DNA of 32,000 bases, from positions 390,001-422,000 of the forward strand of contig NC_006624.1 in assembly GCF_000009965.1 (NCBI RefSeq). The letters are read 5' to 3'. The notes beneath the pieces are model-generated. The model saw only the letters and a list, made by a program, of their open reading frames with translations. It searched no databases and was not told where the DNA came from. Below are positions 1 to 29,181 of the stretch, one piece after another (the first letter of the stretch is position 1; each line of letters opens with the position of its first letter). The translations under genes were made by a program, and so were the position numbers. The DNA comes from Thermococcus kodakarensis KOD1. GTDB taxonomy: Archaea; Methanobacteriota_B; Thermococci; Thermococcales; Thermococcaceae.

Positions 1-2619
<2,619 letters not shown>

Positions 2620-4777: not shown

Positions 4778-4908
4778 AGATTTAGGTATTCTTAATCCCT
4801 AGCACTTAAACATTATTTACAACTTAATGATTTTCAATATGACAGATCATAAACTTTAAATTGATACCTAGATTTATAGAGTGCCGACAAACTCCGGAGG
4901 TGGCTACA

Positions 4909-7900
4909 ATGACCACAAGAAAACGTGCTAGCGTTCTGTTAGTGATGATGTTGTTCTTGGCAATTGTGCCATATAAAGCATCCGCAGGCAACAGCATCCA
5001 AGGTTACTTTACTACAATAAAGAGTACGGTGAAAACATTCTTCGGGGGAGATTACAACGGGTGGAACCCACAACTTAAGATAGTTCCCGGGTCAGAGGTC
5101 AGGATTTCAAGAGACGAGATACGAGTCGGTGCAGACTTCTTCAAAGAAGAGTATTCTGGCGTTAAAGGTGGTAAAGGATATTACCTAATCGCTTATGGCA
5201 CCGTGAAGAGCTATCTAGACAGTATTGCCACAAACTGGCCCGGAGATGACAGAAGTCCTCTCTGGCACATGAACATCCAGACATACGACTCGGACTATTC
5301 AACAGATCTGTTCAGTGAGATCCTTGCAATCGAGATTCTAAGAACTCTGCTCCCGGAATACAACGGAGTTGATCTAAAGGCCGTGGCCAATGGTAGGTTT
5401 GAAGATATAAACTCGAAGTACTCAACCCTCGGCAAATCTGATGTCATGAAATGGATTCAGAAAATATCAAACCCCCAAGTTATGCAAGTGATCGCCCGCA
5501 GGATGAATGATTTTGCTGGCGGGATACCTAATAGGAATCTATCTACAATCCCCGACATCTATGGTGCTCCATACAGAACGGCAGTTTTGGTGGCTCTAGT
5601 TGAAGAAGTAGATCCTCAGCTTTCAGAAGAGGTTCCATTTGATATTCCCGGGGAAATTCTCGAACTAGCCAGAGTGTATGTTGGACAGAATCGGGGCTGG
5701 GACTACCTTAATCGTGCAACCATGGCACTTCCCATACTTCCCATAAAGCACCTAAGCATTACTATCCTTGGCACCAATTACACCATAGGAAACGGGATCG
5801 ATGTTCTCATGATAGACACCACAAATAGAGAATACCTTCTTGGCCTCTGGAACGGGACTGACTACTCGGTTATCCTGAAGATAAAATACCTGAACGCAAC
5901 TAACCTAGCAATAACACCCGTAAAATATGCAGAAAGAGCTGGGGCTATTCTCCATGCAGGAGAATACCCTGTCACACTAACTCCAAGTTCAATTGGCAGG
6001 ACTATAAAGACCCCCCTCGCAGGATTCCCCTGGGAATTAAGTGAAGTTGTTATGTACTGGACAGGTAACCCAACCAGTTATCTGAACTACAACATCAAGA
6101 AAGAGGGGAACTCCTACGTTTATGAAGGCGATCCAGGAGGTCTCAGGATAACACCCCTTGCAGAAGGCTCGTTCCTTGTGACATTCACGAACAGGGATGG
6201 CTTTACATTCATATTTGGAAACGCCGCAATTAACGTAACAGGGGACATGAAAGGAAAGACGTACCTTGTATATCCAAGAGAAGGGGCCATAATCCAGTGG
6301 AACTCTATTCAGATGCCCACAACGGCTTTGATAAGTGCAAACTCCTTTGATAACTGGCATGTTGTGGGCAACGCATATGTGGATCCAACCATTAACGCCA
6401 TCGTGTTAACTCCAGATCAGGGATACAAAGCGGGAGCAACGTGGTATCTGATCCCAGTAGATCTAACGATGACCTTCCAAGCTAGGGCAAAGTTCTATTC
6501 AGGTCGCTGTGGAGGGGGAGATGGCATTTGGGTTGGATTCCAGAACGCTGGTACTAATGTTGTTGGCGGAACCGGCAGTGGTGTTGGTATTAGTGGTATT
6601 TGGCCAGCAGTAGGATTTAGAATATGGGAAATCGGAAGAAGCGTTGATCTCTATCTAAACGGCAACTTCCAAGAGATTACAAGCGGTGTTTGCTTCGCAG
6701 ACGAAAAAGAACATGATATGTTGTTCTATTGGGACCCCGATACAGAGACACTTGGCATCAAAATTGATAACACTTATGAATACACTAAGAACATAGACCT
6801 GATATCCGAACTGGGACAGACCGCATACTTTGGATTCACCGGTGGTACTGGCGGTGCCCGTAATCTGCACTACGTAAAGCCAATATTCGTTGGAGTATCT
6901 CTGGAAGACCTCAAAGACCTCATTGAAAGCACTCGCGAATTCCTTCAGAATGTCTCCTCCCTTGGTGTTGATGTCAGCGATCTCATGACAACGCTCAGCT
7001 CAGCGGAGGAATCTCTTCAAGGTGTTGATCCTTCAGACACACGTACGATTTCAAAGATTTCTAAAGAAGTAGCAGGAATACAGACCGAAGCTATAACAAG
7101 GCTCGCCAACAAAGTTGCAGATCTGTATTACAAAGTCTCTCTCGCCAGATCAGTTGGTCTGAGCGATATCTCATTGGATGTTAACTTTGAGTCAGGTAAG
7201 AATTCAATGATATCCGGTGACTTAACCAATGCATTAAAGTACCTTAACGATGCATTTAATGAAGCAAATTCAATGGCCAAAGAGTCCCTCGATGAGATAG
7301 AGCAGAACATAACATCGTTGATGTCAGAGGCCATCAAGTACGGAGTAGCTATAGGCGACCTTAAGGATAGACAAAAAATCATTGAGGCTTCGAAGTCTCA
7401 AGGAGACTACGTATCCGCGTACGTCGAAGCAATGAAAATATATAAGCAACTCTCAAAGAAAGTTGAAATTGCAAAGCAGAAGACCACAGAACAAACAACC
7501 ACAACACAATCGAATAATAAAACTCTAGAACAGAAAACAGAAGAGACAACAACCACTCAAAGAACCTCTGAGAGTTCTCCTGAAAGCGCTACCACCGAGT
7601 ATCCACTTAAAGTTGGAGACTGGGCAAAGTACAAACTCAAGTTCGAAGCATCAGGAGACAACGAGAAGATCTCGGGATCAATAGAGTACAAAGTCGTCGT
7701 CATAAATGTGGATGATCAGGGGTTCACCATTAGGTTTGAAGACGTCAAAGGAGATCTGGACAAATACAAGAAGTTATGGGGCGATGAAGGAAAAATCAAA
7801 GAAGGTGATACCCTAACCATTCCGTGGGATGTGGAACCAGGAGATAACAACATTTACGCAGACCCCAAAAAATTGCCAGAGGACGGAAAAGTTAAGAATA

Positions 7901-8115
7901 TGATAGAAACATGGGAATATGATACGAGAACAGGCTTGCTAAAGAGTTACAAGGGATCAGTAGATCTATTCGGTGTAAAGATCAGCGAGGAGATTCATCT
8001 GGAATCATCCAACGCTGTCAAAGGTGGCAGTTCCGGCAGTGGAGGAATATGTGGGCCCGCAATGTTCATTACTCTAGCGCTAGTTCCTCTAATCCTCAGA
8101 AAAAAGCGATTTTGA
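4909..8115 (+). CDS. large secreted surface protein: signal peptide, legume-lectin/ConA-like domain, helical region, Thr-rich stalk, CGP-CTERM anchor
   Basis: 1068 aa from ATG 4909 (GGAGGTGGCTACAATG). Signal peptide is MTTRKRASVLLVMMLFLAIVPYKASA. The lectin-like block (~6340-6895) reads NWHVVGNAYVD...GDGIWVGFQN...AYFGFTGGTGGARNLHYV. The Thr-rich linker (~7481-7597) reads KTTEQTTTTQSNNKTLEQKTEETTTTQRTSESSPESATT. The C-terminus GGSSGSGGICGPAMFITLALVPLILRKKRF fits the Thermococcales CGP-CTERM sorting signal (Cys-Gly-Pro, then TM, then basic tail). Confidence 0.75.
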   Translation: MTTRKRASVLLVMMLFLAIVPYKASAGNSIQGYFTTIKSTVKTFFGGDYNGWNPQLKIVPGSEVRISRDEIRVGADFFKEEYSGVKGGKGYYLIAYGTVKSYLDSIATNWPGDDRSPLWHMNIQTYDSDYSTDLFSEILAIEILRTLLPEYNGVDLKAVANGRFEDINSKYSTLGKSDVMKWIQKISNPQVMQVIARRMNDFAGGIPNRNLSTIPDIYGAPYRTAVLVALVEEVDPQLSEEVPFDIPGEILELARVYVGQNRGWDYLNRATMALPILPIKHLSITILGTNYTIGNGIDVLMIDTTNREYLLGLWNGTDYSVILKIKYLNATNLAITPVKYAERAGAILHAGEYPVTLTPSSIGRTIKTPLAGFPWELSEVVMYWTGNPTSYLNYNIKKEGNSYVYEGDPGGLRITPLAEGSFLVTFTNRDGFTFIFGNAAINVTGDMKGKTYLVYPREGAIIQWNSIQMPTTALISANSFDNWHVVGNAYVDPTINAIVLTPDQGYKAGATWYLIPVDLTMTFQARAKFYSGRCGGGDGIWVGFQNAGTNVVGGTGSGVGISGIWPAVGFRIWEIGRSVDLYLNGNFQEITSGVCFADEKEHDMLFYWDPDTETLGIKIDNTYEYTKNIDLISELGQTAYFGFTGGTGGARNLHYVKPIFVGVSLEDLKDLIESTREFLQNVSSLGVDVSDLMTTLSSAEESLQGVDPSDTRTISKISKEVAGIQTEAITRLANKVADLYYKVSLARSVGLSDISLDVNFESGKNSMISGDLTNALKYLNDAFNEANSMAKESLDEIEQNITSLMSEAIKYGVAIGDLKDRQKIIEASKSQGDYVSAYVEAMKIYKQLSKKVEIAKQKTTEQTTTTQSNNKTLEQKTEETTTTQRTSESSPESATTEYPLKVGDWAKYKLKFEASGDNEKISGSIEYKVVVINVDDQGFTIRFEDVKGDLDKYKKLWGDEGKIKEGDTLTIPWDVEPGDNNIYADPKKLPEDGKVKNMIETWEYDTRTGLLKSYKGSVDLFGVKISEEIHLESSNAVKGGSSGSGGICGPAMFITLALVPLILRKKRF

Positions 8116-9055: not shown

Positions 9056-12000
9056 ATGAAAGCCGTATACAGGGAGATGTGCCCAAACTGCTGGGGGAGA
9101 ATATCCGACGAAAGGCTCGTAATGAGGAACCCGTGTGAAGAATGCCTCGACGAACCCGTTCACGCTGACTCCTACTTCCAGCTCGTTTCTGCGGTGAGGA
9201 ATGCGCTTAAACTCAGGGGCACTCTCAAGGAGTGGGAGAAAATATACCAGCTTGAGAACCAGACGAGGGAGATAGAGGAGTTCTTCAAGAAAGCCACAGG
9301 CTTTACGTTCTGGAGCGCCCAGAGGACTTGGGTAAAGAGGCTTCTCAAGGGGAGGAGCTTCTCCATCATAGCGCCTACTGGAATGGGTAAGAGCACCTTT
9401 GGCGCCTTCATGGCCGTCTGGCACGCTCTAAAGGGCAAGAAGAGCTACATAGTAGTCCCAACAACTCCTCTCGTCATCCAGACCGTCAGGAAGATAGAGG
9501 GTATAATGGAGAACGCGAACGCCGACGTCAGGCTCGCCTACTACCACGGGAACCTCAGGAAGAAGGAAAAAGAGGAGATGCTTGAGAGAATCAAAAACGA
9601 GGACTACGACATCCTTGTAACCAGCGCCCAGTGGCTGGCCAGGAACTACGAAGAGGTTCTGAAGGGCAGGCACTTCGACTTCATATTCGTTGACGATGTT
9701 GACGCTTTCCTTAAGGCGAGCAAGAACATAGACCGCTCCCTTTATCTCCTCGGCTTTACGGATGAGATAATCCAGAAGGCCTGGGAAATAATCAGGCTGA
9801 AGAAGCAGATGTCAAGATACCTGAACGGGAACTCAGAGGACAGAAATGAGAAGCTGAACGGGCTTAACAGGGAAATAGAAAAGCTTCAGAGGGAGATAGA
9901 AAAGTTCAAGCGGAAGAACAAGATTGGAATAATGATAATCGCATCTGCCACGGGTTCCGCGAGGGGCGACAGGATAAAGCTCTACCGCGAGCTTCTGGGC
10001 TTTGAAGTCGGAAGCGGAAGGAGCGCCCTTAGGAATGTCGTTGACAGCTACCTCAAGCCAACTAAAGACATTAAGGAGCACGTTGAGGAGCTTCTCACAA
10101 GGCTCGGAAAGGGCGGCCTGATATTCGTCCCAGTTGATCAGGGTCTTGGCTACGCTGAGGAATTAGCTAATTATCTCAGCGAGAAGGGCTTTAAGATAGA
10201 GCTCGTCTCGTCCAAGAACAAGAAGGCCCTTGAGAAATTCGAGAACGGCGAGGCGGACTACCTGATAGGTTCTGCCACCTATTACGGCTCCCTCGTCAGG
10301 GGTATTGACCTACCGCACCTCATACGCTACGCCGTCTTCACGGGCGTTCCGAAGTTCCGCTTTAGTATAGACCTTGAGAGACCAACCATATATCGTGCCC
10401 TAGGCCTGCTCAGCGAGATAATGGACTTCCTCAGTGAGGAAGACAGGAGGCAAGCCGAAAAGCTCCACGCCCGCTTGAGGAGGCTCATAAGGAACATCCC
10501 GCAGTTCGAGCTCCTAAAGATTGAAGAGGCCCTTGCCGAGGGTCTCCCGATAGAAAACGAGTTCCACAACCACGTCCTCGGCGTTTTCCGCGAGCTGGTG
10601 GAGTTCCTGAGGAGGGTTCTCAGAGACGAGGAAGTCCTTAGAAAGCTCGCCGAAGATCCGTTCATAAGCCTGGTCAAGGAAGAGGGCAAGTGGTACATTG
10701 AGATACCCGACGTCAGAACCTACATCCAGGCAACGGGAAGGACGAGCAGGCTCTTCGCGGGAGGAATCACGAAGGGTCTGAGCGTCCTCATAGTGGACAA
10801 CGAGAAGGTCTTCAACGGCCTCGTCAGGCAGATGCGCTGGCGTTTCCAGGAGTTCAAGATGGTTCCATTCGAGGAGCTTGACCTCGATGAGATTCTCAGG
10901 CAGATAGACGAGGACAGAGAGAAGGTCAGGCTCGTTATGGAGGGCAAAATAAGCGCCAAAGTCAAAGACCTCGTCAGGTCTGCCCTCATGATAGTCGAGA
11001 GCCCGAACAAGGCCAGAACTATAGCGAACTTCTTCGGTCAGCCGAGCAAGACGAGGATAGGGGACCTGGTCGCCTACGAGATAAGCGTTGGGGACAGGAT
11101 GCTGACGATTCTGGCCAGCGGAGGTCATATGTTCGACCTCGTCACGAACGAGGGCTATCACGGCGTTCTAATCCAGAACGAGGGTGACATGCTGAAGTTC
11201 ATTCCCGTTTACGACACCCTCAAGAGATGCCGTGACTGCGGCCACCAGTTCGTGGACTGGGAGAAGAAAGGGGTGTGCCCGCGCTGTGGCTCTACTAATG
11301 TCAGGGACGCCCTTGAGAACGTCATTGCTATGCGCGAGATAGCACAGGAAGTTGATGAAATCCTCATAGCGACCGACCCCGATACCGAGGGTGAGAAGAT
11401 AGCCTGGGACATCAGGAACGTCCTCGCCCCGTACACGCCCAACATAAAGCGCATAGAGTTCCACGAGGTAACGAGGCCGGCCATAATGAAGGCCATCCAG
11501 GAGGCGAGAGATGTCAACGAGAACCGCGTCAACGCGCAGATCGTTAGGAGAATCGAGGACAGATGGATAGGCTTCGAGCTGAGCCAGGAGCTCCAGAGGG
11601 TCTTTGAGAGCTACAACCTGTCAGCAGGAAGAGTTCAGACACCGGTTCTCGGCTGGATAATCGAGCGCTATAAGGAGTTCACGGAGAGCGAAGTTTACTT
11701 CCTCGGCCTGACCCTTGAGAACGGCTTACAGGTAACTATTGAACTCGGAAAAGACGGCAAAGACGTAGAGCCGCCTGAATACGTCACCGTCGAGGAAGTC
11801 CAGCTCGAGGAGAGGGAACTCAACCCAGCTCCACCATATACTACGGACGCGATGCTGAAAGATGCTTCGACCTTCCTGAAGCTTTCGGCTCCCGAAACGA
11901 TGAGGCTCGCACAGGATCTCTTCGAGGCAGGTCTCTGCGTCACACCCGATACTCTCGTTAGCCTTGCCGACGGAAGGATCATGGAGATAAAGGATGCGGT

Positions 12001-14191
12001 GGAGAAGTCCGAGGGGAATCTGCTCTCAGTGAACGGCCTTAAGCCAAAAGAAGCAAAAGCCCTCAAGTTCTGGGAGATTGACTGGAACGGGCCTCTTAAG
12101 GTCATCAAGCTCAAAAACGGACACGAAATTAAGGCAACTCCCGACCATGGTCTCCTCGTGATGAGAGAGGGCAAGCTCGGCTGGGTCTCCGCCAAGAACG
12201 TCAGGGAAGGAGACTACGTTGCCTTCGCCTACAACACCGGCCACCGTGGAAGAGATGAATACACGCTCCTCAAACTCATGATAAAGCTCGGAATAACCGA
12301 CGTGATGGTCGAGCTGGACGAGGAGTATTTCAACGAGAAGGTAGCTCCAATCGTCAGGGAGAGGATCTCAACGAGCACCAAGTACAAGTATCTCCGCAGG
12401 CGTGTCCTTCCCCTCTACCTTCTCCAGGAATGGGGGCTTGATGACTACGAGGCCCACGTGAAGTCCCTCTACCGCCAAAGGGCAGGCTCAAAGCCCATAC
12501 CCAACTTCAAACTTGACGGGAGGTTCTGGTACGTCTTCGGCCTCGTCCTTGGCGATGGAACCCTAAGGGACAGCAAGGTCTTGATTTCCCAGACTCCCCT
12601 GAAGGACGTTAAATCCGTACTCGAAGATGTTTTCCCGTTCCTCCGTGTCTTTGAAACGACGAACCAGGTTGGCTTCTCGAACTCAATCATCGCCGAGGTC
12701 TTCAGGAGACTTGGAGCGAGAAAAGGAAAGCTCCACCCGCTCGTGTTTGGACTCCGTGAGGAGTACATCAACGCAATGATCGCAGGCTATTTTGACACGG
12801 ATGGAACTTTCTCCATCCTCAACGACAGGAAAGGGCCGAACTTCAGGGGGATCCTGACTTCAAAGAGGGGCGACGTCCTCAGAATGCTCAGCGTTTACCT
12901 CTACCAGATCGGCATCATGAACTACCTCAGACGGGACGAGCGCACTGGGGTTTGGGACTTGATAATAAGCAACAGGAGCCTCGAAAAGTTCAGGGAGAAA
13001 ATATACCCGTACCTTAGAATTAGAAGGGCGCAGTTTGACGAGGCGTATTCCGTTTACAGGGCATCGCGGAGGGCCTTTGAGGGTGACCTGCTCCCGGTCG
13101 CTCCCGTCTTCGGAAAGCTGAAGTTCAAAAACGGCACCAAGAACAGGATCCTGAAGGAAACTGGAATCGACGTTTGGAACTGGCTCAAACGTCCGGAGGG
13201 AGAGATTCCACGGGACAAACTCTCAAAGGTGCTTGAGTACGCAGAGGAAAGCCCAGAGAAGGAGTTCCTCAAGTCCCTCGTCGAGGCGGGGGTTACCTGG
13301 GTTAAAGTGAAGGGGGTTGAAGAAGAACTTTACACCGGAAAGCTCTATGACTTCACGACGACCACTGAGAACTTCCTCTCCAACGGTGCCGTCTCCCACA
13401 ACTGTACCTACCACAGAACTGACAGTACACACGTCAGCAACACCGGAATAGAGGTCGCGAAGGAATACATAACCCAGGAACTCGGCGAAAAGTACTTCAA
13501 ACCCAGGCCGTGGGGAGAGGAGGGAGCACACGAGGCCATAAGACCCACTAGACCGATAGACACCGGCAGGTTGATGCAGCTCATCCGCGATGGAATAATC
13601 CAGCTCCCGAGGAACCTTACAAGGAATCACTACAGGCTCTACGACATGATATTCAGGCGCTTCATGACGAGCCAGATGACCCCAGCGAAGATACTCTACG
13701 AGAAGGCCGTAATCAACGCTGGCGTCGGAAAGGCCGAGCTTGAAGGCTACGTTGAGATAATCGAGGACGGCTGGACAAGACTGCGCTCGCCGCCGCTCAG
13801 GGAGCTTCCAAAGCTTGAGAAGGGAATGAAGCTCAAGGTGGTTGAGGCAAAGAAGTGGAAGGCTCCAAAGGTTTCCCTCTACACTCAGGGAGACATAATA
13901 GCCCTGATGAAGGAGAGGAAGATAGGAAGACCGTCAACGTACGCCAAGATCGTTGAAACGCTCATGAGAAGAGGTTACGTCGTGGAAACAAAGGGAAGAA
14001 AGAAGCTCCTTCCAACGGAAAAAGGCATCAAAGTCTACCACTACCTCGTCAGCAAGTACAGGGACCTTGTGAGCGAGGAGAGAACGAGGGAACTTGAGGA
14101 AATAATGGACCGCATAGAAGAAGGGATTGAGGATTACATAAAGGTTCTCGGGGAGCTTTATTCGGAAATTCAAAGATACGTTTCGGGTTGA
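9056..14191 (+). CDS. rgy: reverse gyrase (helicase-like domain fused to type IA topoisomerase), interrupted by an intein
   Basis: N-terminal Zn finger CPNCWGR...CEEC. Walker [10 protein letters not shown] and DDVD box. TOPRIM motifs [13 protein letters not shown] and [14 protein letters not shown]. Zn ribbon CRDCGH...CPRCGS. The topo IA active-site motif TYHRTDS is split from LFEAGL by the intein. 1711 aa total, 1222 aa after splicing. Confidence 0.95.
11936..13402 (+). mobile_element. intein (489 aa) with LAGLIDADG homing-endonuclease domain, inside reverse gyrase
   Basis: Junctions are ...[19 protein letters not shown] and ...[15 protein letters not shown]. These give Cys1, a terminal His-Asn and a +1 Cys. 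Block B is IKATPDH. The two LAGLIDADG motifs are [14 protein letters not shown] and [15 protein letters not shown]. Confidence 0.9.
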
Positions 14192-21883: not shown

Positions 21884-23299
21884 ATGAGCCGCCAGATGGT
21901 TGGAGCGCTGGTTCTCCTGCTCTTGCTGACGCTGCCCGGAGTCTCCGCCGTTTCCCTGCCGTGGTCAGGGCTTTCCATCTTTGGAGCAAGCTCAGGGGCC
22001 TACCCAATCCGCCTCGACGGCGTTGAACAGACCGGCAACATCGCGGTCGTAACATGGGACGTCCCGCCCAACTGCCTCTCCGGCTACGGCACCGTGTTCA
22101 TCAGCAGGGATGGAAGAACCATCACAGAGCGCGTCAGCCTCGGCCGGCTGAAGCCCTGGGGCAAGAAGGTAGCGGTTTTCCTCAACGTCAGGGAGCCGGT
22201 TTACGTCAAACTGCGCATCACCTCTGGAAACGGAATCTTCATGAGCTCGTGGGTGAAGTTGAGGCCCCAATCCGTACCGAGAGTCTTCTCGACAGGCTAT
22301 ACGACCACTTATTCCTGGGGAGACGGGGAGATAAGGCCGCAGTTCGTCCCAATTCCAGCCATCATCGGGGCAATAATCTCGGTGGGCTTTGCGCTCTGGG
22401 ACGCCTACGATGCCTATAATGCGTGTTCCGACTACGGGGAGGACTCAATAAAGTGCACCGTCGCCGCTGGTTCGGTGTTCGTTTTCAGCCTGGCTATGGA
22501 GGGCGATGAGCTGGTCGGCGTGCTCAGGCACGGTGATGAACTCGTTGAGGTTCCTGGAAAGCTATACAGCACGCTGAAGCGCCTCGACCTCGTTGAGGAG
22601 GTTGGTGATGGAGTCGTCAGGGCCAAGGAGAGGTTCGCCCACATATTCGACGACATAGTAAAGCACGGCGACGATGCCGCAAAGGCCCTCGACGACCTCG
22701 TCAGGGCTGGAGTTTCAAAGGAGGCCGTCGAGGAGACAGTCAAGCACGGCGCGACGATAAAGGAGATAAAGGAAGGAATTGAACGGTCGGAGAGGGCATT
22801 AGAAAGGATAGCAGGTGGAGCGGAAGGAAAACATGTCCTCGGAAAAGTACGGACGTACGACGTGGCCATAGAGAAAGGGAACGAAAAGGAGGGGCTCATT
22901 CACATGCTCCTCAGGCACGTGTGGGGATACGACATGGAAAACGTGGGAAAAACATCCTTCTGGCCGATGGGCCAGAAGATCATCGTGAGCGGTCAGGAGA
23001 AGCAGCTTCCCAGGGTTTTCAGGGATGAGGGGGAGCTGATGGAGTTCCTGAAGGAAGTTGTGGAGAGGGTGAGCAAGGATCCAGAGTACATATCTGAGAA
23101 ATTCTTTAAGAATGGGGTGCCCAACAGGAACTTTGGGATTCCAGTGGATCTTAAGAAGCTTGGAATGCGTGTTGATGGGATTGATGTTGTTCAGCTGGAG
23201 TTTAGGTTCGAGAAGGGTGAATTCGTCCTGAAGACGGCGTATCCTGTTGATGGTTGGGCTGTTGAGACGTTTATTCCTGGTAAGGGTGGCTGGCAGTGA
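21884..23299 (+). CDS. full-length polymorphic-toxin candidate: signal peptide, beta-rich ectodomain, two hydrophobic segments, helical linker, 115-aa swappable C-terminal module (CT1)
   Basis: 471 aa. Signal peptide is MSRQMVGALVLLLLLTLPGVSA. Hydrophobic segments are VPIPAIIGAIISVGFALWDAY (22346-22408) and CTVAAGSVFVFSLAM (22454-22498). Residues 357-471 (nt 22952-23296) recur downstream as start-less copies. Confidence 0.6.
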   Translation: MSRQMVGALVLLLLLTLPGVSAVSLPWSGLSIFGASSGAYPIRLDGVEQTGNIAVVTWDVPPNCLSGYGTVFISRDGRTITERVSLGRLKPWGKKVAVFLNVREPVYVKLRITSGNGIFMSSWVKLRPQSVPRVFSTGYTTTYSWGDGEIRPQFVPIPAIIGAIISVGFALWDAYDAYNACSDYGEDSIKCTVAAGSVFVFSLAMEGDELVGVLRHGDELVEVPGKLYSTLKRLDLVEEVGDGVVRAKERFAHIFDDIVKHGDDAAKALDDLVRAGVSKEAVEETVKHGATIKEIKEGIERSERALERIAGGAEGKHVLGKVRTYDVAIEKGNEKEGLIHMLLRHVWGYDMENVGKTSFWPMGQKIIVSGQEKQLPRVFRDEGELMEFLKEVVERVSKDPEYISEKFFKNGVPNRNFGIPVDLKKLGMRVDGIDVVQLEFRFEKGEFVLKTAYPVDGWAVETFIPGKGGWQ

Positions 23300-23822
23300 G
23301 GTGATACGAATGTGGGCCACCATACAAGGAAAACACTTGACGATAAAAATAGACCTAGATAGGTACATTCCATCTCCAGATCCTTTCTTTTCGATTTTTA
23401 CGATAGGTGACCATTTACTCGTGGGGGCCTGCTGGAAGGGAAAACTCGAAGGAGATGAAAGTGATGTCTACAGAGTTTTTGAGAACTTGTTGACTGCTTG
23501 TTATTACTTTTTACAGCCAGAGCATCCGCACGTTCAGAAACTAACCAGGTTTGAGAAAAAGAATGTGGAAGAGGCAGGATTCAGATTAAAAGGGGAGGAG
23601 GTTGTTGTGTATCAGGGTGTTGAGAGGAACAGTATTTACTACGCTTGCTCTACAGGGAAGACCGCGAGAATTTACTATCACAATGGACTCCTTGAATTCA
23701 CTGATTGTCCAGAATACAAGGGCAAGCACAAGGGTGTCGTTGAGCTCCCGCTTAGAGAGTTCATTGAAGACGTTCTGAAAGTCAGCAAGGAGTACTTGGA
23801 AAAATACGCTCCAATTATTGAG
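22952..23822 (+). repeat. cassette repeat copy A (CT1 plus most of immunity-like 1)
   Basis: Colinear without indels with 24868-25738 (constant offset 1916 nt). Roughly nine positions in ten are identical by eye, not computed. It includes a ~50-nt perfect run, CCCAGGGTTTTCAGGGATGAGGGGGAGCTGATGGAGTTCCTGAAGGAAGT. Confidence 0.8.
23171..23315 (+). repeat. 145-nt perfect direct repeat, copy 1 (3' end of CT1, junction, first codons of the immunity gene)
   Basis: Identical base for base to 26529-26673 on my reading. The flanking similarity extends over 23157-23365 versus 26515-26723 with 5 mismatches. Confidence 0.8.
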
Positions 23823-23921
23823 AAAATCAGGCTGGAGCATGGGGAAAAGCCTGACGACTATGACTTCCTCCAAAAGTTCTATCTGGAAGTTGAGAGACTG
23901 TATAAGGAGAAGTTTGGGTAA
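23310..23921 (+). CDS. immunity-like protein 1 (203 aa), cognate position to CT1
   Basis: The ATG lies 10 nt after the toxin stop, within TGAGGTGATACGAATG (SD spanning the stop). Family motifs are GKHLTIKIDL, VGACWKGK, DCPEYKGKHKGVVELPLREFIEDVLKVSKEYLEKY. The track ORF's first 21 codons are a spurious extension. Confidence 0.6.
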   Translation: MWATIQGKHLTIKIDLDRYIPSPDPFFSIFTIGDHLLVGACWKGKLEGDESDVYRVFENLLTACYYFLQPEHPHVQKLTRFEKKNVEEAGFRLKGEEVVVYQGVERNSIYYACSTGKTARIYYHNGLLEFTDCPEYKGKHKGVVELPLREFIEDVLKVSKEYLEKYAPIIEKIRLEHGEKPDDYDFLQKFYLEVERLYKEKFG

Positions 23922-24258
23922 GAGGATCATCGTGAACGGTCAGGAGAAGCGGTTGCCAAAAGTCTTCAAGAACGAGAAAGAGCCCAGAGAGTTCCTTGAT
24001 GAAGTGTTGAAGAGGGCACTTCAGGAGGAAGAGTACTACACAGAATTTAGGGGACAGAGCTTTGTGAAGCTAAGGGTAAACTTGGATAAGCTTGGGGTGC
24101 ATATAGACGGGATAGATGCGGTAGAGTTCCAGTTCTCGTATAACCAAGCTAAGGGTGCCTATCAACTTATCACAGCGTATCCCTCAAAGGGTAAGAATGT
24201 TTTAGGGTACGTGTGGGACAGAGAAAAACAATCTGGTAAATGGATACGCATGGGGTGA
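23917..24258 (+). pseudogene. orphan toxin C-terminal cassette CT2 (113 codons, no own start or promoter), divergent variant
   Basis: GKRIIVNGQEKRLPKVFKNEKEPREFLDEVLKRA...GIDAVEFQFSYNQAKGAYQLITAYP is colinear with residues ~363-455 of the full-length gene. The tail is different. Homology begins exactly at the stop codon of the preceding gene, and there is no in-frame Met until the last residues. Confidence 0.6.
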
Positions 24259-24263
24259 CTTCA

Positions 24264-24860
24264 ATGAGGTGCAAACTTCGTGGAAAATTTATTGAGGTTG
24301 AAATAGATTTGGAATCCTTTGAGCCAGACCCATTTCCCGGCCGTTTTCCTATTCTTTTTTTGGTGGCTGGGCACGAAGTAGGTGGATACCACAATGAGGG
24401 ATGGCTTGGCGACTCATATGGCCTCTTTCAGGATCTACTCCTCTGTACGAGAGATCTCCTAAAGTGCCCTGAAAGTTGTTTTAACAAAAGGAAAAACGCT
24501 GAGAGCGATGGTTTTAAGTTGTTACCTGATAGCTATGTCTGCGGACCAATACTTGACTTAGATTTTAACACGTATTATCTTGAAAGAAAGGGAGAATTGT
24601 TGCGTTTTCATTTCATAAATGAAGCTCCCAAGTATATTTCTTCGAAGAATTCCCTTCAGGGCACTATCGAACTACCGTTTGGGGCCTTTGTCGCCGATAT
24701 TCTCAAAATAAGCGAGGAGTACCTTGAAAAATGTTTCCCAATAGAAATGGAGACTAAAGCCATGCAATATAACAGATTTACCGAGGAAATTTCTCGGCTT
24801 AGGCAATACTTAGAAAACCTCATACAGGAAATTAAAACAGAACTGGATTTTGGGCATTAA
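24264..24860 (+). CDS. immunity-like protein 2 (198 aa), divergent family member paired with CT2
   Basis: The ATG lies 5 nt after the CT2 stop. MRCKLRGKFIEVEIDL..., YGLFQDLLLC, GTIELPFGAFVADILKISEEYLEKC share the family architecture. AT-rich, about 35% GC in a spot count of 24541-24600. Confidence 0.55.
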   Translation: MRCKLRGKFIEVEIDLESFEPDPFPGRFPILFLVAGHEVGGYHNEGWLGDSYGLFQDLLLCTRDLLKCPESCFNKRKNAESDGFKLLPDSYVCGPILDLDFNTYYLERKGELLRFHFINEAPKYISSKNSLQGTIELPFGAFVADILKISEEYLEKCFPIEMETKAMQYNRFTEEISRLRQYLENLIQEIKTELDFGH

Positions 24861-24861
24861 T

Positions 24862-25215
24862 TGGGAAACATCCTTCTGGCTGATGGGCCAGAAGATCATC
24901 GTGAACGGTCAGGAGAAGCAGTTGCCCAGGGTTTTCAGGGATGAGGGGGAGCTGATGGAGTTCCTGAAGGAAGTCGTGGAAAGAGCTCTCAAGGACCCAG
25001 ATTATCAAAAAGAATTCTTTAATAGACTTGGAGCACCGAAATCAAGCTTTGGGATTCCAGTGGATCTTAAGAAGCTTGGAATGCGTGTTGATGGGGTTGA
25101 TGTTGTTAGGTTGGAGTTCAGGTTCGAGGATGGGAAGTTTGTCCTGGAGACGGCGTATCCTGTTGATGGTTGGGCTGTTGAGACGTTTATTCCTGGGAGA
25201 GGTGGCTGGCAGTGA
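24862..25215 (+). pseudogene. orphan toxin C-terminal cassette CT3 (start-less), about 80% identical to CT1
   Basis: WETSFWLMGQKIIVNGQEKQLPRVFRDEGELMEFLKEVVERALKDPDYQKEFFNRLGAPKSSFGIPVDLKKLGMRVDGVDVVRLEFRFEDGKFVLETAYPVDGWAVETFIPGRGGWQ. In-frame homology to 22952 onward starts at 24868, right after the stop of the preceding gene. The track 'M' is a TTG. Confidence 0.6.
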
Positions 25216-25738
25216 GGTGATACGAATGTGGATCACCATACAAGGAAAACACTTGACGATAAAAATAGACCTAGATAGGTACATTCCATCTCCAGATCCT
25301 TTCTTTTCGATTTTTACGATAGATGACCACATACTCGTGGGAGCCTGCTGGAAGGGAAAACTCGAAGGAGATGAAAGTGATGTCTACAGAGTTTTTGAGA
25401 ACTTGTTAGATGCGTGTTCTTGTCTTTTAGACCCGGAGCATCCGCATGTTCGGGCACTAACCAGGTTTGAGAGAAAGAATGCAGAAGAGGCAGGATTCCG
25501 GTTAAAAGGGGATGAGGTTGTGGTGTATCGGGGGGTTGAGAGGAACAGTATTTACTATGCTTGCTCTACCGGACGGATTGCGAGAATTTATTATCACAAT
25601 GAGCTCCTTGAATTCACAGATTGCCCAGAATACAAGGGCAAGCATAAGGGCGTTGTTGAGCTTTCACTTAAGGAGTTCGTTGAGGACGTTCTGAAAATCA
25701 GCAGGGAATACTTGGAAAAATACGCTTCGATTATTGAT
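24868..25738 (+). repeat. cassette repeat copy B (CT3 plus most of immunity-like 3)
   Basis: Partner of 22952-23822; see that entry. Confidence 0.8.
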
Positions 25739-25876
25739 AGGATTTTGATCGAGAATGAACACAATCCCGGTGATGACTATGAATACCTTTTGAACTTTTA
25801 TCAGGAGGTTAAGAAAATGTACGAGAAACCCAGTTGCGGGAGCTCTAGCTTAAGCAAAAAAGAACATTGGGCGTGA
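25226..25876 (+). CDS. immunity-like protein 3 (216 aa), close paralogue of protein 1
   Basis: It has the same TGAGGTGATACGAATG junction. It is roughly 80% identical to immunity-like 1 by eye, with a different C-terminal tail. The first 66 codons of the track ORF 25028.. are out-of-frame read-through of CT3. Confidence 0.6.
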   Translation: MWITIQGKHLTIKIDLDRYIPSPDPFFSIFTIDDHILVGACWKGKLEGDESDVYRVFENLLDACSCLLDPEHPHVRALTRFERKNAEEAGFRLKGDEVVVYRGVERNSIYYACSTGRIARIYYHNELLEFTDCPEYKGKHKGVVELSLKEFVEDVLKISREYLEKYASIIDRILIENEHNPGDDYEYLLNFYQEVKKMYEKPSCGSSSLSKKEHWA

Positions 25877-25880
25877 TCCC

Positions 25881-26501
25881 ATGAACACGCTCAAATTATC
25901 TGGCAAGCACATCTACATAGAGGCTGACTTAGGGAAATTCTATGGGGGAGCATATCCCTTTCCCCTCATCATGTTACTGGATGACCATGTCATCGTGGGC
26001 ATGTGCTGGAAAAAATGGAGTTCAGGGAAGCTGGTTGGGTCGCCAGGGGACCCATATGGAGTTGTGCAGGATTTACTGGACAGTGTGAGGTTCTTTATGG
26101 TGGCGAAGCCAAGACGGCTCGTTGGTGTTAAGCCGGACACTGTTAGAGAGTACGGATTTCAGGTTGGGGAGGACTCTTCGATTTACTCTGCAACATCGGT
26201 AGCGGACTCAGTCTTCATTTTTCTTGAAAGAAAGAATGATGTAGTGAAAATACATTACTATAACCAGCTTCTCTACGAAACAGATTGCCCGGAATTCAAG
26301 GGAATGGGCAGGGGTACAATTGAATTGCCTTTCTTGGAATTTGTTAATGATGTGCTCGAGATTTCGGAGGGATACCTCAAAAACTATGCAGGTGTCATAG
26401 AACGGATTATGAGAGAGTATGAGGAGGAACCGTATGACCATGATATCCTCTGGAGATGGTATCTGGAAATCAAGGAGGAAATTACAGGCAGGAGGATATG
26501 A
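25881..26501 (+). CDS. immunity-like protein 4 (206 aa), stand-alone divergent member
   Basis: Starts 4 nt after the previous stop with no CT module in front. MNTLKLSGKHIYIEADL, VGMCWKKW, YGVVQDLLDS, DCPEFKGMGRGTIELPFLEFVNDVLEISEGYLKNY. Confidence 0.55.
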   Translation: MNTLKLSGKHIYIEADLGKFYGGAYPFPLIMLLDDHVIVGMCWKKWSSGKLVGSPGDPYGVVQDLLDSVRFFMVAKPRRLVGVKPDTVREYGFQVGEDSSIYSATSVADSVFIFLERKNDVVKIHYYNQLLYETDCPEFKGMGRGTIELPFLEFVNDVLEISEGYLKNYAGVIERIMREYEEEPYDHDILWRWYLEIKEEITGRRI

Positions 26502-26516
26502 ATACATTGTCACTAG

Positions 26517-26657
26517 CTTGGAATACACGTTGATGGGATTGATGTTGTTCAGCTGGAGTTTAGGTTCGAGAAGGGTGAATTCGTCCTGAAGACGGCGTAT
26601 CCTGTTGATGGTTGGGCTGTTGAGACGTTTATTCCTGGTAAGGGTGGCTGGCAGTGA
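26517..26657 (+). pseudogene. truncated toxin C-terminal stump (last 46 codons of CT1)
   Basis: LGIHVDGIDVVQLEFRFEKGEFVLKTAYPVDGWAVETFIPGKGGWQ is preceded by an in-frame TAG at 26514-26516. Positions 26529-26673 are identical to 23171-23315. Confidence 0.75.
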
Positions 26658-26673
26658 GGTGATACGAATGTGG
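26529..26673 (+). repeat. 145-nt perfect direct repeat, copy 2
   Basis: Partner of 23171-23315, offset 3358 nt. Confidence 0.8.
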
Positions 26674-27276
26674 ATCACCATACAAGGAAAACACTTGACG
26701 ATAAAAATAGACCTAGATAGGTATATTCCCTCTCCTTATCCATTTTTTCTGATCTTTGGGATAAAAGATAACCTGATTGTAGGAGCCTGTTGGAAGGGTA
26801 AGCTTGAAGGAGCAGAAACAAACGTTTATGGGGTTCTCCAAGAGCTCCTTATAGCGTGCATTCAGATGCTTAACCCAAAGAGTAGCACTTCAAATTTTGC
26901 CAGAAAGGAAGCGAAGTGGCATGGGTTTGTTCTTAACGAGAACAATCCGTCTTATGAGCTCATTACGTCATCAAATCCATCTAGCATTCTTTACTTTGAA
27001 GCAGATGGGAATATCCTAAAAGTTTACTATTATAATGATCTGCTTGCATATACCAACTGTCGTGAATATGAGAACAGACATAGGGGTGTCGTTGAACTCC
27101 CGCTTAGAGAGTTCGTGGAGGATGTTCTGAAAATCAGCAGAGAGTACTTAGAAAAGTACGCTTCGATTATTGAGAAAATCAGGCTGGAGCATGGGGAAGA
27201 ACCTGACGACTACGATTCCCTCAGGGGGCTCTATCGCGAGGTTGAAAGGTTGTATAGAGAGTCAGGATTCCGCTGA
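26668..27276 (+). CDS. immunity-like protein 5 (202 aa), mosaic member
   Basis: The first ~19 codons are near-identical to proteins 1 and 3. The central ~120 codons diverge. The last ~60 codons are again about 88% identical at nt level to protein 1 (23733-23870 versus 27085-27222, 17 mismatches counted by eye). Confidence 0.6.
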   Translation: MWITIQGKHLTIKIDLDRYIPSPYPFFLIFGIKDNLIVGACWKGKLEGAETNVYGVLQELLIACIQMLNPKSSTSNFARKEAKWHGFVLNENNPSYELITSSNPSSILYFEADGNILKVYYYNDLLAYTNCREYENRHRGVVELPLREFVEDVLKISREYLEKYASIIEKIRLEHGEEPDDYDSLRGLYREVERLYRESGFR

Positions 27277-27326
27277 GGAGCTCTGGGGGTGATTCTGTGA
27301 GCTGGTGGCTCGGAAGTTTAAAGCCC

Positions 27327-27935
27327 ATGAGGCTCGTTGGGAAGCACATAGAAATTGACGTGGACCCCAACGCCCCCACGTGCTTTCCATCTCCTATCCC
27401 GACCCTGATGAGAATTGACAGAAGGCTGATCATCGGCGGAATATTCAAATCCTCGGGATGCACTCCCTTGATGATGGATACAAACCTCCACGGCATGTTC
27501 CAGGACCTTCTCGACCTCTGCATCTCCTTTCTCGACCCCGACTTCGACGAGCAGGGGGAGATGGCGTATCCCAGAAGGGAGGCAAGAAAGTTGGGCTTTA
27601 AAATAGGGGACAGCACAAAGCTCTACCAGACGAGCCTCTTTGTGGACCAAGGGGTTACCACCGTGTTTTTTGAGCTCGTCGGGGAAAGGCTGAGGATTCA
27701 CTACCTCAACGAGCTTCTCGGATGGAGCGACTGCGAGGATGCCAGGAAAACACACAGGGGGACATTCGAGGTTCCCTTTTTGGAGTTCGCGGAGGACGTT
27801 TTAGTGCTCTCTAGGAGGTTCCTAACGGAGGTAGCACCCATTATTGAGGAGGTCTGTCCCGAGCTTGACGATCCCGAGTACCTGTGGAAGCTGTACCTTG
27901 AACTGAACGCAAGGTTGGTGGGGGAGGATGATTAA
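27327..27935 (+). CDS. immunity-like protein 6 (202 aa), GC-rich divergent member
   Basis: MRLVGKHIEIDVD, HGMFQDLLDLC, LGFKIGD, DCEDARKTHRGTFEVPFLEFAEDVLVLSRRFL share the family layout. About 58% GC in a spot count of 27481-27540. The track start 27297 (GTG) is less likely than ATG 27327. Confidence 0.55.
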   Translation: MRLVGKHIEIDVDPNAPTCFPSPIPTLMRIDRRLIIGGIFKSSGCTPLMMDTNLHGMFQDLLDLCISFLDPDFDEQGEMAYPRREARKLGFKIGDSTKLYQTSLFVDQGVTTVFFELVGERLRIHYLNELLGWSDCEDARKTHRGTFEVPFLEFAEDVLVLSRRFLTEVAPIIEEVCPELDDPEYLWKLYLELNARLVGEDD

Positions 27936-29181
27936 GTGGGCGAAAACCTACTGGAAGGGCGGAGTGGCATCTATCTCCCTCACACGGGGCGGAGACATGA
28001 TTGCTGCGGGGGTGGCGGAAAAGGAGCTGCATTTCTTGGCAGAATATGGCCCACGCAGGGTAATCCTCAGTGGGGGCTTCGTGGCAAGGCTCGGGAGAGA
28101 TGGAAGCCTCAAGTGGTTTAGAATCATCCCGAAGGTGACCATAACCGATGCTGAAGTTACTGGTAACGGGGAAGTGGTATTGGTGGGGGTAACGAGGGAA
28201 CCCCGCTCCATGATGCTGGGGGTGATCCTCAAATTCGATGGTAATGGAAACTTCCTGTGGGGCAGGAGGTTTAACGGAGGTGTGCTTGATAGCTTCAATG
28301 CCCTCACGACGACAAGAGACGGTGGAACTGTAGTTGTCGGCGAAACAAGAAGCTTCGGCGCGGGGGTCAGCGACGCCCTGGTCCTAAGGCTCGACGGAGA
28401 TGGAAACTTTGTCTGGTGGGGAACCTACGGCGGCAAGCTGTGGGACGGGGCAGAGTCCGTAGCTATCGACAGAGAAGGGAGGATAGTGGTTGCGGGCTAC
28501 ACATACAGCTTCAGTGAAGGCCCATCGAACGCGTGGCTCCTCTGGCTCGATAACGAGGGTGATGTTCTTCTGGGGAAGACGTACGGAACGGAGAGCCTGG
28601 AAAAGGCCGTTAAAATCGCGCTGACTCCTGAGGGTGACCCCGTGGTGGTCGGGAAAACCTACGTTCCAATAAAGTCCCGCCACGATGCCTGGGCCATCCG
28701 CCTGGACGGCGAGGGGGAACCTGAGTGGGGGCTGAGATTTCCTGGGATGGAAGCCGTCGACATTGCGGTAAGCCCCAGCGGTGATCTGGTTGTCGCCATG
28801 GAAGATTTTGAGCTGGCCGGAATTGGCTCCACAGGAGAACCCTTGTGGGGAGAAAGGCTAAAGCTGAAAATGGACGGTGGACTGAGAACAGTTTTGGCGG
28901 ATGAACACGTTCTCGTGGGAGGTGGAGCTCTCTGGGGAATCGGAGAAGCGTTCATCGCATCAATTCAGCCCGAAGGGGAACCTCCTGCTGTCCTTGACTG
29001 GAATCCTGAGGTGAAAGAAAGCGAGTGCACGGTTTTCAGGGCGTACGCTAACGGCGAGGCCTGCTTTAAGGCCACTCCCGTCGGAAGGTTCACCGAAGTG
29101 AGGCTAAAACCCGTGGAGTTCAAGCCAGATGTATTCAGCAGCTTCGAGGAGTTCGCAGAAAGCAGTTACGTTCGTCGTTGA
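27928..29181 (+). CDS. cytoplasmic 7-blade beta-propeller repeat protein with a ~70-aa C-terminal domain
   Basis: About seven 45-50-aa repeats with the pattern W..(T)YGG...D.a.sva...dG.ivvaG.T.Sf....dawll.lD..G...W. No signal peptide. The ATG overlaps the stop of immunity-like 6 by 8 nt (ATGATTAA). Confidence 0.65.
   Translation: MIKWAKTYWKGGVASISLTRGGDMIAAGVAEKELHFLAEYGPRRVILSGGFVARLGRDGSLKWFRIIPKVTITDAEVTGNGEVVLVGVTREPRSMMLGVILKFDGNGNFLWGRRFNGGVLDSFNALTTTRDGGTVVVGETRSFGAGVSDALVLRLDGDGNFVWWGTYGGKLWDGAESVAIDREGRIVVAGYTYSFSEGPSNAWLLWLDNEGDVLLGKTYGTESLEKAVKIALTPEGDPVVVGKTYVPIKSRHDAWAIRLDGEGEPEWGLRFPGMEAVDIAVSPSGDLVVAMEDFELAGIGSTGEPLWGERLKLKMDGGLRTVLADEHVLVGGGALWGIGEAFIASIQPEGEPPAVLDWNPEVKESECTVFRAYANGEACFKATPVGRFTEVRLKPVEFKPDVFSSFEEFAESSYVRR

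Follow-up and report, generated by a model that had tools for sequence, protein, structure and literature searches.

Why does Thermococcus kodakarensis KOD1 carry six related genes of about 200 codons on the same strand, some of them nearly alike and others only distantly similar? This question is raised by a locus within a 32,000-nucleotide (nt) stretch of its genome (assembly GCF_000009965.1, contig NC_006624.1, positions 390,001 to 422,000 of the forward strand), which is referred to as "the window" in this study. The six paralogues, named p1 to p6, span positions 23310-27935 of the window and are interspersed with copies of toxC, one full and 2.5 truncated; toxC is the C-terminal domain of a 479-amino-acid (aa) protein encoded upstream of them. 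As argued below, these genes are probably the immunity half of an archaeal polymorphic toxin/immunity locus with orphan immunity genes. The p1 protein is 100% identical to a T. kodakarensis KOD1 "hypothetical protein, conserved". The array presumably corresponds to TK0482-TK0491 and the toxin to TK0482 (counted from TK0475 and TK0492); no mention of these presumed tags, or of PNA2_1642/1643, was found in the literature.

Hidden Markov models (HMMs) were built for the immunity family, for the N-terminal region of the toxin and for toxC, and they were mapped on six-frame translations of the window and of 19 other distinct loci (seven named Thermococcales genomes, one Methanothermococcus metagenome-assembled genome (MAG) and 11 other MAG or metagenome contigs). 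All loci but one read as a full toxin, an immunity gene and then repeated units of a tip fragment (a piece of toxC) and an immunity gene. Except in one locus, what precedes each family gene is a complete toxC, a truncated tip, a remnant or a further gene of the family. An earlier note on this DNA, made from the sequence alone, had tied the family to variable upstream tips, and this tie holds in 19 of the 20 loci, the window included. Upstream of the 43 near-full-length immunity genes there is a complete toxC in 13 cases, an orphan tip in 11, a short remnant (at most 50 codons) in 8 and another immunity gene in 11, the last being copies with no tip at all. The orphan tips begin at toxC profile positions 32-62, just past the HxxLRH motif (n=11); both orphan tips of the window start at the FWPMGQ junction, at that same place, and the layout recurs in the other loci that extend beyond the first toxin-immunity pair.

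Tips and their partner genes are closely coupled. The gaps between them are -1 to 12 nt in most pairs, and tip identity tracks the identity of the adjacent partner with r=0.84 over 24 pairs (no permutation as high among 5000 in a Mantel test), a value that reflects cassette integrity rather than binding. Region by region, the covariation was uniform (r=0.55-0.78), and it did not localise an interface. In Methanothermococcus, toxC (E=6.5e-19) forms part of a 443-aa protein with an unrelated N-terminal region, consisting of a signal peptide and a K/N-rich helical stretch, and a family member is still the next gene downstream. Such a toxin domain on a different N-terminal region, with its partner kept, is a hallmark of polymorphic toxins. 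The size of the arrays varies as well: the array is minimal in Pyrococcus sp. NA2 (one toxin, one immunity gene and a short downstream toxC remnant), and that of T. gammatolerans contains eight immunity genes.

The family profile search yielded 57 clusters at 90% identity, and those that bear an organism name are all "hypothetical proteins" of Thermococcus or Pyrococcus. When 1.84 billion representatives were scanned exhaustively with HMMER, 25 were hit (50% identity representatives), 21 of them at E<=1e-10, including Methanothermococcus and Methanocaldococcus members. The 14 homologues of the toxin and the 20 of toxC were all from Thermococcales; taking all searches together, neither protein family was found outside the Thermococcales and a few Methanococcales. 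Searches by tblastn detected no copy of the locus on plasmids or phages.

The elements of the locus in the window are as follows.

21884-23299, plus strand: full-length predicted polymorphic toxin, 479 aa (open reading frame (ORF) from TTG 21860; likely start ATG 21884)
21884-21952, plus strand: signal-peptide-like N-terminal hydrophobic segment (ORF residues 9-31)
22337-22405, plus strand: second hydrophobic segment, candidate membrane anchor (residues 160-182)
22856-23296, plus strand: complete toxC domain (HMM coverage 1-144 of 147, E=1.5e-66)
22892-22930, plus strand: E..GLIHxxLRHVWGY motif, conserved in toxC (the domain also holds the T.FWPMGQ junction)
23131-23430, plus strand: 300-nt direct repeat of tip end, intergenic spacer and immunity gene start (copies at 25047-25346, 93%, and 26489-26788, 86%)
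23310-23921, plus strand: p1, predicted cognate immunity protein of the resident toxin, 203 aa (HMM E=2e-96)
23911-24258, plus strand: orphan toxin tip 2, without the HxxLRH part (toxC HMM coverage 39-147, E=3e-43; 41% identical to tip 1)
24264-24860, plus strand: p2, immunity gene of an orphan cassette (alternative ATG at 24240; lowest G+C content at third codon positions (GC3), 0.40)
24859-25215, plus strand: orphan toxin tip 3 (toxC HMM coverage 32-144, E=6e-50; 79% identical to tip 1)
25226-25876, plus strand: p3, immunity paralogue of p1 (78% identical; alignment and family HMM)
25881-26501, plus strand: p4, orphan immunity gene (start 4 nt past the p3 stop; dN/dS 0.08-0.11)
26517-26657, plus strand: 46-codon 3' remnant of a toxin tip (toxC HMM coverage 99-144; 96% identical to tip 1)
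26668-27276, plus strand: p5, mosaic immunity gene (5' and 3' ends p1-like, centre divergent)
27297-27935, plus strand: p6 (GTG start behind a GGGGGTGAT Shine-Dalgarno-like site; 8-nt overlap with the next gene)
27928-29181, plus strand: 417-aa β-propeller-like protein (weak DUF5122, delta-60 and SBBP repeat hits), conserved partner of the p6-type gene

All genes from 21884 to 29181 lie on the plus strand, with tiny gaps or overlaps. The start of the toxin gene at ATG 21884 has a GGAGGTGA Shine-Dalgarno-like site 6 nt upstream and a TTTTAAA box around 21835, and the toxin homologues begin at the equivalent Met. The p1 gene starts 10 nt past the toxin stop and is preceded by a GAGGTGAT site. 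The sites predicted by a scan for bacterial promoters and terminators, which is not suited to archaeal promoters, were no more numerous than in shuffled sequence. The FWPMGQ junction at the 5' boundary of tip 3 is marked by a 139-nt repeat (91% identity to 22950-23088). With one full domain, two orphan tips and the 46-codon remnant, the earlier count of 3.5 toxin tips was correct.

The six proteins form one family. They align end to end, the family HMM matches all of them (E=1e-69 to 1e-96), and the outer coordinates 23310-27935, as first proposed for six paralogues, proved exact. Pairwise identities range from 26 to 79%, and even the most distant pair, p2/p6, is recognised by BLASTP (E=4e-15). 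Identity to p1 is 29% for p2, 78% for p3, 35% for p4, 60% for p5 and 31% for p6, in agreement with the notion that proteins 1 and 3 are about 80% identical and that proteins 2, 4 and 6 are only distantly similar. The sequence motifs that had been listed as shared are present, except that G.CW is missing from p2 and p6. The description of conserved ends around a hypervariable centre stands in part: mean pairwise identity is lowest in the centre (0.22-0.29 at profile positions 66-117, versus 0.37-0.49 in the N-terminal part) and peaks at positions 144-169 (0.59-0.62), but it was overstated: conservation is uneven along the protein, for which "hypervariable" goes too far, and the last 40 or so residues are variable again. 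By hydropathy and isoelectric point (pI) computation, all six lack an N-terminal signal segment and are acidic (pI 4.6-5.9).

Some family members in other loci depart from this format. Two immunity types recur as fixed doublets behind toxC (L007 5234-6428, L008 7465-8626, L001 2400-3681 and L002 8382-9647; the full domain in three of the four), and fused double-length members of 402 and 451 aa (P0075 and P0089) occur in T. eurythermalis, T. nautili and Thermococcus sp.; both hint that some toxins need a two-unit immunity protein. A shorter subtype, which shows as two contiguous in-frame HMM hits, lacks profile positions of about 76-100, part of the variable centre (L004 4064-4621, L006 10952-11509, L018 2797-3354, L019 503-1060 and L020 2128-2679). 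In the Methanothermococcus MAG (L011 8810-10184), a 144-aa ORF lies between two toxC/immunity pairs and is followed by two unrelated small ORFs. It gives no Pfam or PADLOC hit, and its GWKHIIKQNHHNH...DAYP pattern echoes the GLxHxxLRH...TAYP of toxC; this ORF may encode a divergent toxin of the toxC superfamily with a different immunity family.

The earlier note also held that the cassettes differ in age or origin. The spot G+C contents of about 35% and 58% on which it relied were reproduced exactly (0.35 and 0.583), and the contrast persists in whole-gene GC3, which is 0.50 for p1, 0.40 for p2, 0.475 for p3, 0.53 for p4, 0.45 for p5 and 0.70 for p6, compared with 0.57-0.72 for neighbouring housekeeping genes and 0.68 for the toxin gene. 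However, low GC3 (0.40-0.62) is common to all family members other than the p6 type in every Thermococcus host. It marks the mobile cassette pool, not the age of a single copy, and is by itself no clock for what is recent.

Synonymous divergence (dS) and its ratio to nonsynonymous divergence (dN/dS), both by Nei-Gojobori estimates, are more informative on this point. The p2-type gene (cluster 5) always lies 2 nt after a toxC of the tip 2 type and is 89-96% identical in four genomes. The dS between p2 and its counterparts is 0.12-0.32, whereas the aspartyl-tRNA synthetase (AspRS), KH protein and propeller genes of the same genome pairs give 1.35-1.7. This contrast, with at least 1.35 in flanking genes, shows a recent horizontal spread of the p2 cassette. 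The p6-type gene (cluster 6), with a GC3 of 0.70-0.73 and a dS of 1.1-1.2 in three syntenic genomes, appears to be old and vertically inherited, as judged from its host-like GC3 and its dS. The claim of different ages or origins is thus borne out by the p2-type and p6-type values. The narrower claim, that AT-rich members are recent and the GC-rich distal one is old, fits p2 and p6. As for p4, its type (cluster 10) has kept its own upstream toxC in L001 (an orphan tip) and in L006 (a frameshifted copy), so that the p4 tip must have been lost in T. kodakarensis.

Recombination has left traces in the array. Sliding nucleotide identity confirmed that p5 is a mosaic: identity between its cassette and cassette 1 is 97-100% for the equivalent of 23170-23349 (about 180 nt that run from the tip remnant through the spacer into the first codons), about 45% across 23470-23672 and 60-97% from 23673 on. 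The centre of p5 clusters with the first T. gammatolerans immunity gene (70% identity); the remnant upstream of p5 is tip-1-like, unlike the tip of that T. gammatolerans gene. For p1 and p3, which fall in the commonest immunity type by clustering, dS is 0.057 in the first 60 codons versus 0.5-0.7 for the remainder, which identifies the former as a gene-conversion tract. The 300-nt direct repeat, which contains patchy tracts of 97-100% identity, is likely a recombination substrate.

All family comparisons, orphans included, gave dN/dS values of 0.06-0.30. Together with the 11 tip-less copies among the 43, this agrees with the proposed excess of orphan immunity genes: these genes are kept by purifying selection while many tips decay. 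There was no sign of positive selection in the variable centre, where dN/dS was 0.23 for p1/p3, and 0.61 for p1/p5 with dS saturated.

What kind of protein is the presumed toxin? From its N-terminus, it consists of a signal-like segment, a conserved region of about 130 residues, the hydrophobic segment 160-182, a conserved helical region and toxC. The N-terminal segment (Kyte-Doolittle 19-residue mean up to 2.37, followed by ...PGVSA/VS) is conserved among the toxin homologues. Residues 160-182 (Kyte-Doolittle mean 2.11) are absent from the Methanothermococcus homologue; in the T. kodakarensis protein, an acidic two-cysteine stretch comes after them. In an alignment of 11 homologues, the N-terminal 330 or so residues are conserved and the C-terminal 110 or so are divergent. 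toxC starts with an invariant E..GLxHxxLRHxxGY and T.FWPxGQ segment, followed by about 105 variable residues. Its invariant residues are E342, H348, R352, H353, P369, G371 and Q372, and the Glu/His/Arg/His cluster is its sole candidate active site.

The AlphaFold2 model of toxC (pLDDT 83.8) had no significant Foldseek match in the PDB (best E=0.5) or in BFVD (best E=0.025). A RelE/BECR-like reading of its β-α-α-β4 order was dropped, with no solved RelE, ParE or barnase structure among the Foldseek hits. Scans of Pfam, NCBIfam and PADLOC with the toxin, with the orphan tips and with the neighbouring genes in Methanothermococcus yielded no hit above threshold. In two other arrays, the first "toxin" gene (L006 6582-7313, T. 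gammatolerans; L013 6820-7521, T. sp. AM4) is without the signal peptide and N-terminal domain and has its start inside or beyond the helical region. Both arrays may thus be disarmed while many immunity genes are kept in them.

The predicted immunity proteins are equally unfamiliar to the databases. There was no match for p1 to p6 in Pfam, NCBIfam or PADLOC, and an hmmscan of these six and 50 family members against Pfam-A found no Imm-type family (Imm1-74, SUKH, SuFu, barstar and others) at E<=0.05. PDB sequence-profile searches with the immunity family and with toxC returned nothing. Eight of the 50 family members give colinear weak hits to DUF5984 (PF19446), with residues of about 111-189 matching profile positions of about 139-218 of 245, a region that covers the most conserved block of the family. 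The best of these reaches about 16 bits (E=0.0056) versus a gathering threshold of 23.8, p1 to p6 themselves have no hit, and no paper on DUF5984 was found.

The AlphaFold2 model of p1, built with a 50-sequence alignment (pLDDT 95.7, pTM 0.92), is made up of two halves, and in each a four-stranded sheet precedes a helix. This organisation bears a weak resemblance to the PUR-alpha/Whirly-like fold (PDB 3k44, 8cht; 2it9, 2nvn, 2gid), and PUR-alpha repeats were the top Foldseek matches in the PDB (E=2e-3, probability 0.95), with TM-scores of only 0.3-0.4 and a root-mean-square deviation of about 10 Å. We regard the PUR/Whirly-like label as a lead, not as a finding. The PUR/Whirly proteins show no sequence similarity to the family, and as the family is acidic, binding of nucleic acid in the PUR manner is unlikely. 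A profile comparison of the two halves detected no relationship between them (E=0.17) and so gave no support to an internal duplication of the immunity protein.

Reading toxicity, physical binding, export route and biochemical target from this architecture, we propose that: the gene at 21884-23299 would encode a protein with a Sec-type signal peptide, a conserved N-terminal region and a C-terminal toxin domain of about 145 residues; p1, a cytosolic protein, would bind and neutralise the resident toxin, protecting the producer; the downstream, promoter-less orphan cassettes, each with a tip starting from the FWPMGQ junction and its own immunity gene, would serve as a recombination reservoir; homologous recombination at this junction and at the boundary between tip end and immunity gene start could swap a tip-immunity pair into the expressed gene and convert cassettes; and tip-less immunity genes would accumulate because they still protect against neighbours carrying those toxins, a benefit that outlasts the cell's own tip.

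Several observations weigh against this proposal. toxC has no Pfam, NCBIfam, PADLOC, PDB-sequence or significant Foldseek match, and no toxin activity can be assigned to it. The variable tip has almost no invariant polar residues, and catalytic residues, if any, must then sit in the conserved HxxLRH part, as judged from the alignment. Covariation of neighbours can also arise by plain co-inheritance of linked DNA, which contributes to the correlation given above. If residues 160-182 form a single-pass anchor, the C-terminal domain would lie on the cytoplasmic side of the membrane. The surroundings of the locus encode no dedicated archaeal machinery for export or delivery, and the toxin and its neighbours carry none of the delivery domains of type V, VI or VII secretion systems (T5SS, T6SS, T7SS) or of the PVC type, only the Sec-like signal and the possible anchor. 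Finally, not every family member need be an immunity protein, since the p6-type gene is once found without a toxin cluster and is always coupled to the propeller gene.

This last point gives rise to the alternative that survives best. The p6-type gene is carried by the window, T. indicus, T. aciditolerans, T. sp. AM4 and one vent contig, where the pair with the propeller gene occupies the following positions.

Window 27297-29181
L007 8657-10541
L009 10001-11885
L013 10001-11882
L014 10001-11612

The p6-type gene could be a housekeeping-like partner of the 417-aa propeller protein, possibly the ancestor of the immunity genes, with the toxin array having landed beside it. The propeller gene always comes next, and the overlap of the two genes is conserved in all five genomes and contigs (8 nt, or 17 nt in T. 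sp. AM4). This fits such a partnership, as do the host-like GC3, the vertical-type dS and the lack of an own tip directly upstream in any of the five loci. So does L014, a Thermococcus contig from a vent metagenome, in which the pair immediately follows the KH gene and a toxin array is missing. However, where an array is present, the p6-type gene occurs only at its 3' end. It ends the array in four of the five cases, including T. sp. AM4, in which array and pair lie in a different chromosomal neighbourhood, so that the pair seems to travel with the array, and p6 keeps all the family-wide motifs (the absence of G.CW aside). We consider this alternative doubtful, though it deserves some weight; in the other reading, p6 would be an old orphan immunity gene serving as the anchor of the array.

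A bolder version of the toxin/immunity reading is that the system was born in archaea. It would have a new toxin fold, a new PUR-like immunity fold and a membrane-anchored toxin with its ectodomain outside and its toxic domain in the cytoplasm, delivered by vesicles, nanotubes or cell fusions. Thermococcales make membrane vesicles, nanotubes and cell fusions, and delivery by such routes in place of a bacterial-type secretion machine would account for the presence of nothing more than a Sec signal and an anchor. We regard this combination as unlikely.

Somewhat less likely still is a non-lethal role in kin recognition or adhesion, in which the upstream protein would be a surface identity determinant with a switchable tip, and the 200-aa proteins its tip-specific partners (chaperones or cognate recognition subunits). 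IdsD/IdsE, the identity pair of Proteus, would be an analogue. The cassette architecture and the covariation fit this possibility equally well, and the tip without a recognisable enzymatic fold or conserved catalytic residues, as well as the signal peptide and possible membrane anchor of the upstream protein, are consistent with it. Self/non-self recognition has also been proposed, as a third hypothesis, for another hypervariable Thermococcales module, VARTIG (PMC8416519). However, the retention of tip-less partners under purifying selection is what immunity predicts, while a chaperone would be useless without its client, and the partners carry no export signal whereas the variable tip would be extracellular.

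Least probable of all is an intracellular addiction or abortive-infection array, in which toxC, anchored in the producer's own cytoplasm and restrained by its partner, would be released upon stress or infection: the hydropathy pattern does predict a protein that crosses the membrane once, with its N-terminal domain outside and its C-terminal domain in the cytoplasm, the partners are cytosolic proteins encoded next to the toxin, and the window also carries Cas genes, but there is no PADLOC hit in the locus, no copy was found on plasmids or phages, 5'-truncated orphan tips and a tip-swapping layout are foreign to such modules, the Methanothermococcus homologue has no internal hydrophobic segment so that its toxC should be extracellular, and type II toxin-antitoxin features are missing, with a 479-aa toxin bearing a signal peptide and a partner without any helix-turn-helix (HTH), ribbon-helix-helix (RHH) or AbrB hit.

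Elsewhere, the window carries an Hps-Phi fusion, an intein-containing reverse gyrase and AspRS. Among the landmarks usual for T. kodakarensis are the Cas genes (a Cas_CXXC_CXXC-domain protein and Cas6) and reverse gyrase, at 135-2613 (minus strand) and 9056-14191. A 1084-aa ORF at 4861-8115 contains an L-type lectin β-barrel domain, is compositionally atypical (G+C content 0.445, GC3 0.45) and may encode a surface protein.

Returning to the polymorphic toxin reading, the locus resembles the bacterial systems (CdiA-CT/CdiI, Rhs and MafB) in its architecture: an exported protein with a variable tip that begins at a conserved junction, an immunity gene next downstream, arrays of 5'-truncated orphan tips with immunity genes, short homologies that enable swaps, horizontally moving cassettes and more immunity genes than tips (PMC3482391). 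It differs from them in that: neither its toxin nor its immunity family has a model in Pfam, NCBIfam or PADLOC; it lacks a T5SS, T6SS, T7SS, RHS or filamentous-haemagglutinin delivery module; and its conserved junction includes HxxLRH, inside the toxin domain itself. Zhang et al. (2012) found most immunity superfamilies to be absent from archaea and archaeal systems to look bacterial in origin (PMC3482391). The T. kodakarensis locus does not look bacterial in origin.

The archaeal polymorphic toxin systems predicted in 2019 lacked experimental tests as of 2021, and the common archaeal toxin moieties are DNases and RNases (PMC8416519), whereas no DNase or RNase domain is detectable in the T. 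kodakarensis toxin. VARTIG, from the same archaeal order (Thermococcales), has a variable upstream secreted protein and shuffled downstream genes, in a polymorphic-toxin-like organisation (PMC8416519). However, it is centred on a large protein with multiple immunoglobulin (Ig) domains and has membrane-protein partners, while the T. kodakarensis partners are soluble proteins of about 200 aa and the 479-aa protein has no Pfam hit to an Ig-type domain. The architecture of the present locus is thus classical. What is new are the two protein families and their restriction to hyperthermophilic Euryarchaeota. Makarova et al. (2019) reportedly predicted archaeal polymorphic toxin loci by guilt-by-association, and this locus may already be among those listed there.

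T. kodakarensis KOD1 is a standard archaeal genetic model, and its locus is complete: one expressed toxin is joined by three more tip fragments and by six candidate immunity genes that are related to different degrees, and together these make up a ready cross-immunity matrix. Some 60 clusters so far called "hypothetical protein" can be relabelled as candidate components of the immunity or the toxin side. That both families are unannotated and were found only in hydrothermal-vent Euryarchaeota argues against the view of archaeal systems as simple bacterial imports (PMC3482391). Finally, the dS contrast of p2 shows that Thermococcus species exchange cassettes, which implies ongoing competition between strains at high temperature.

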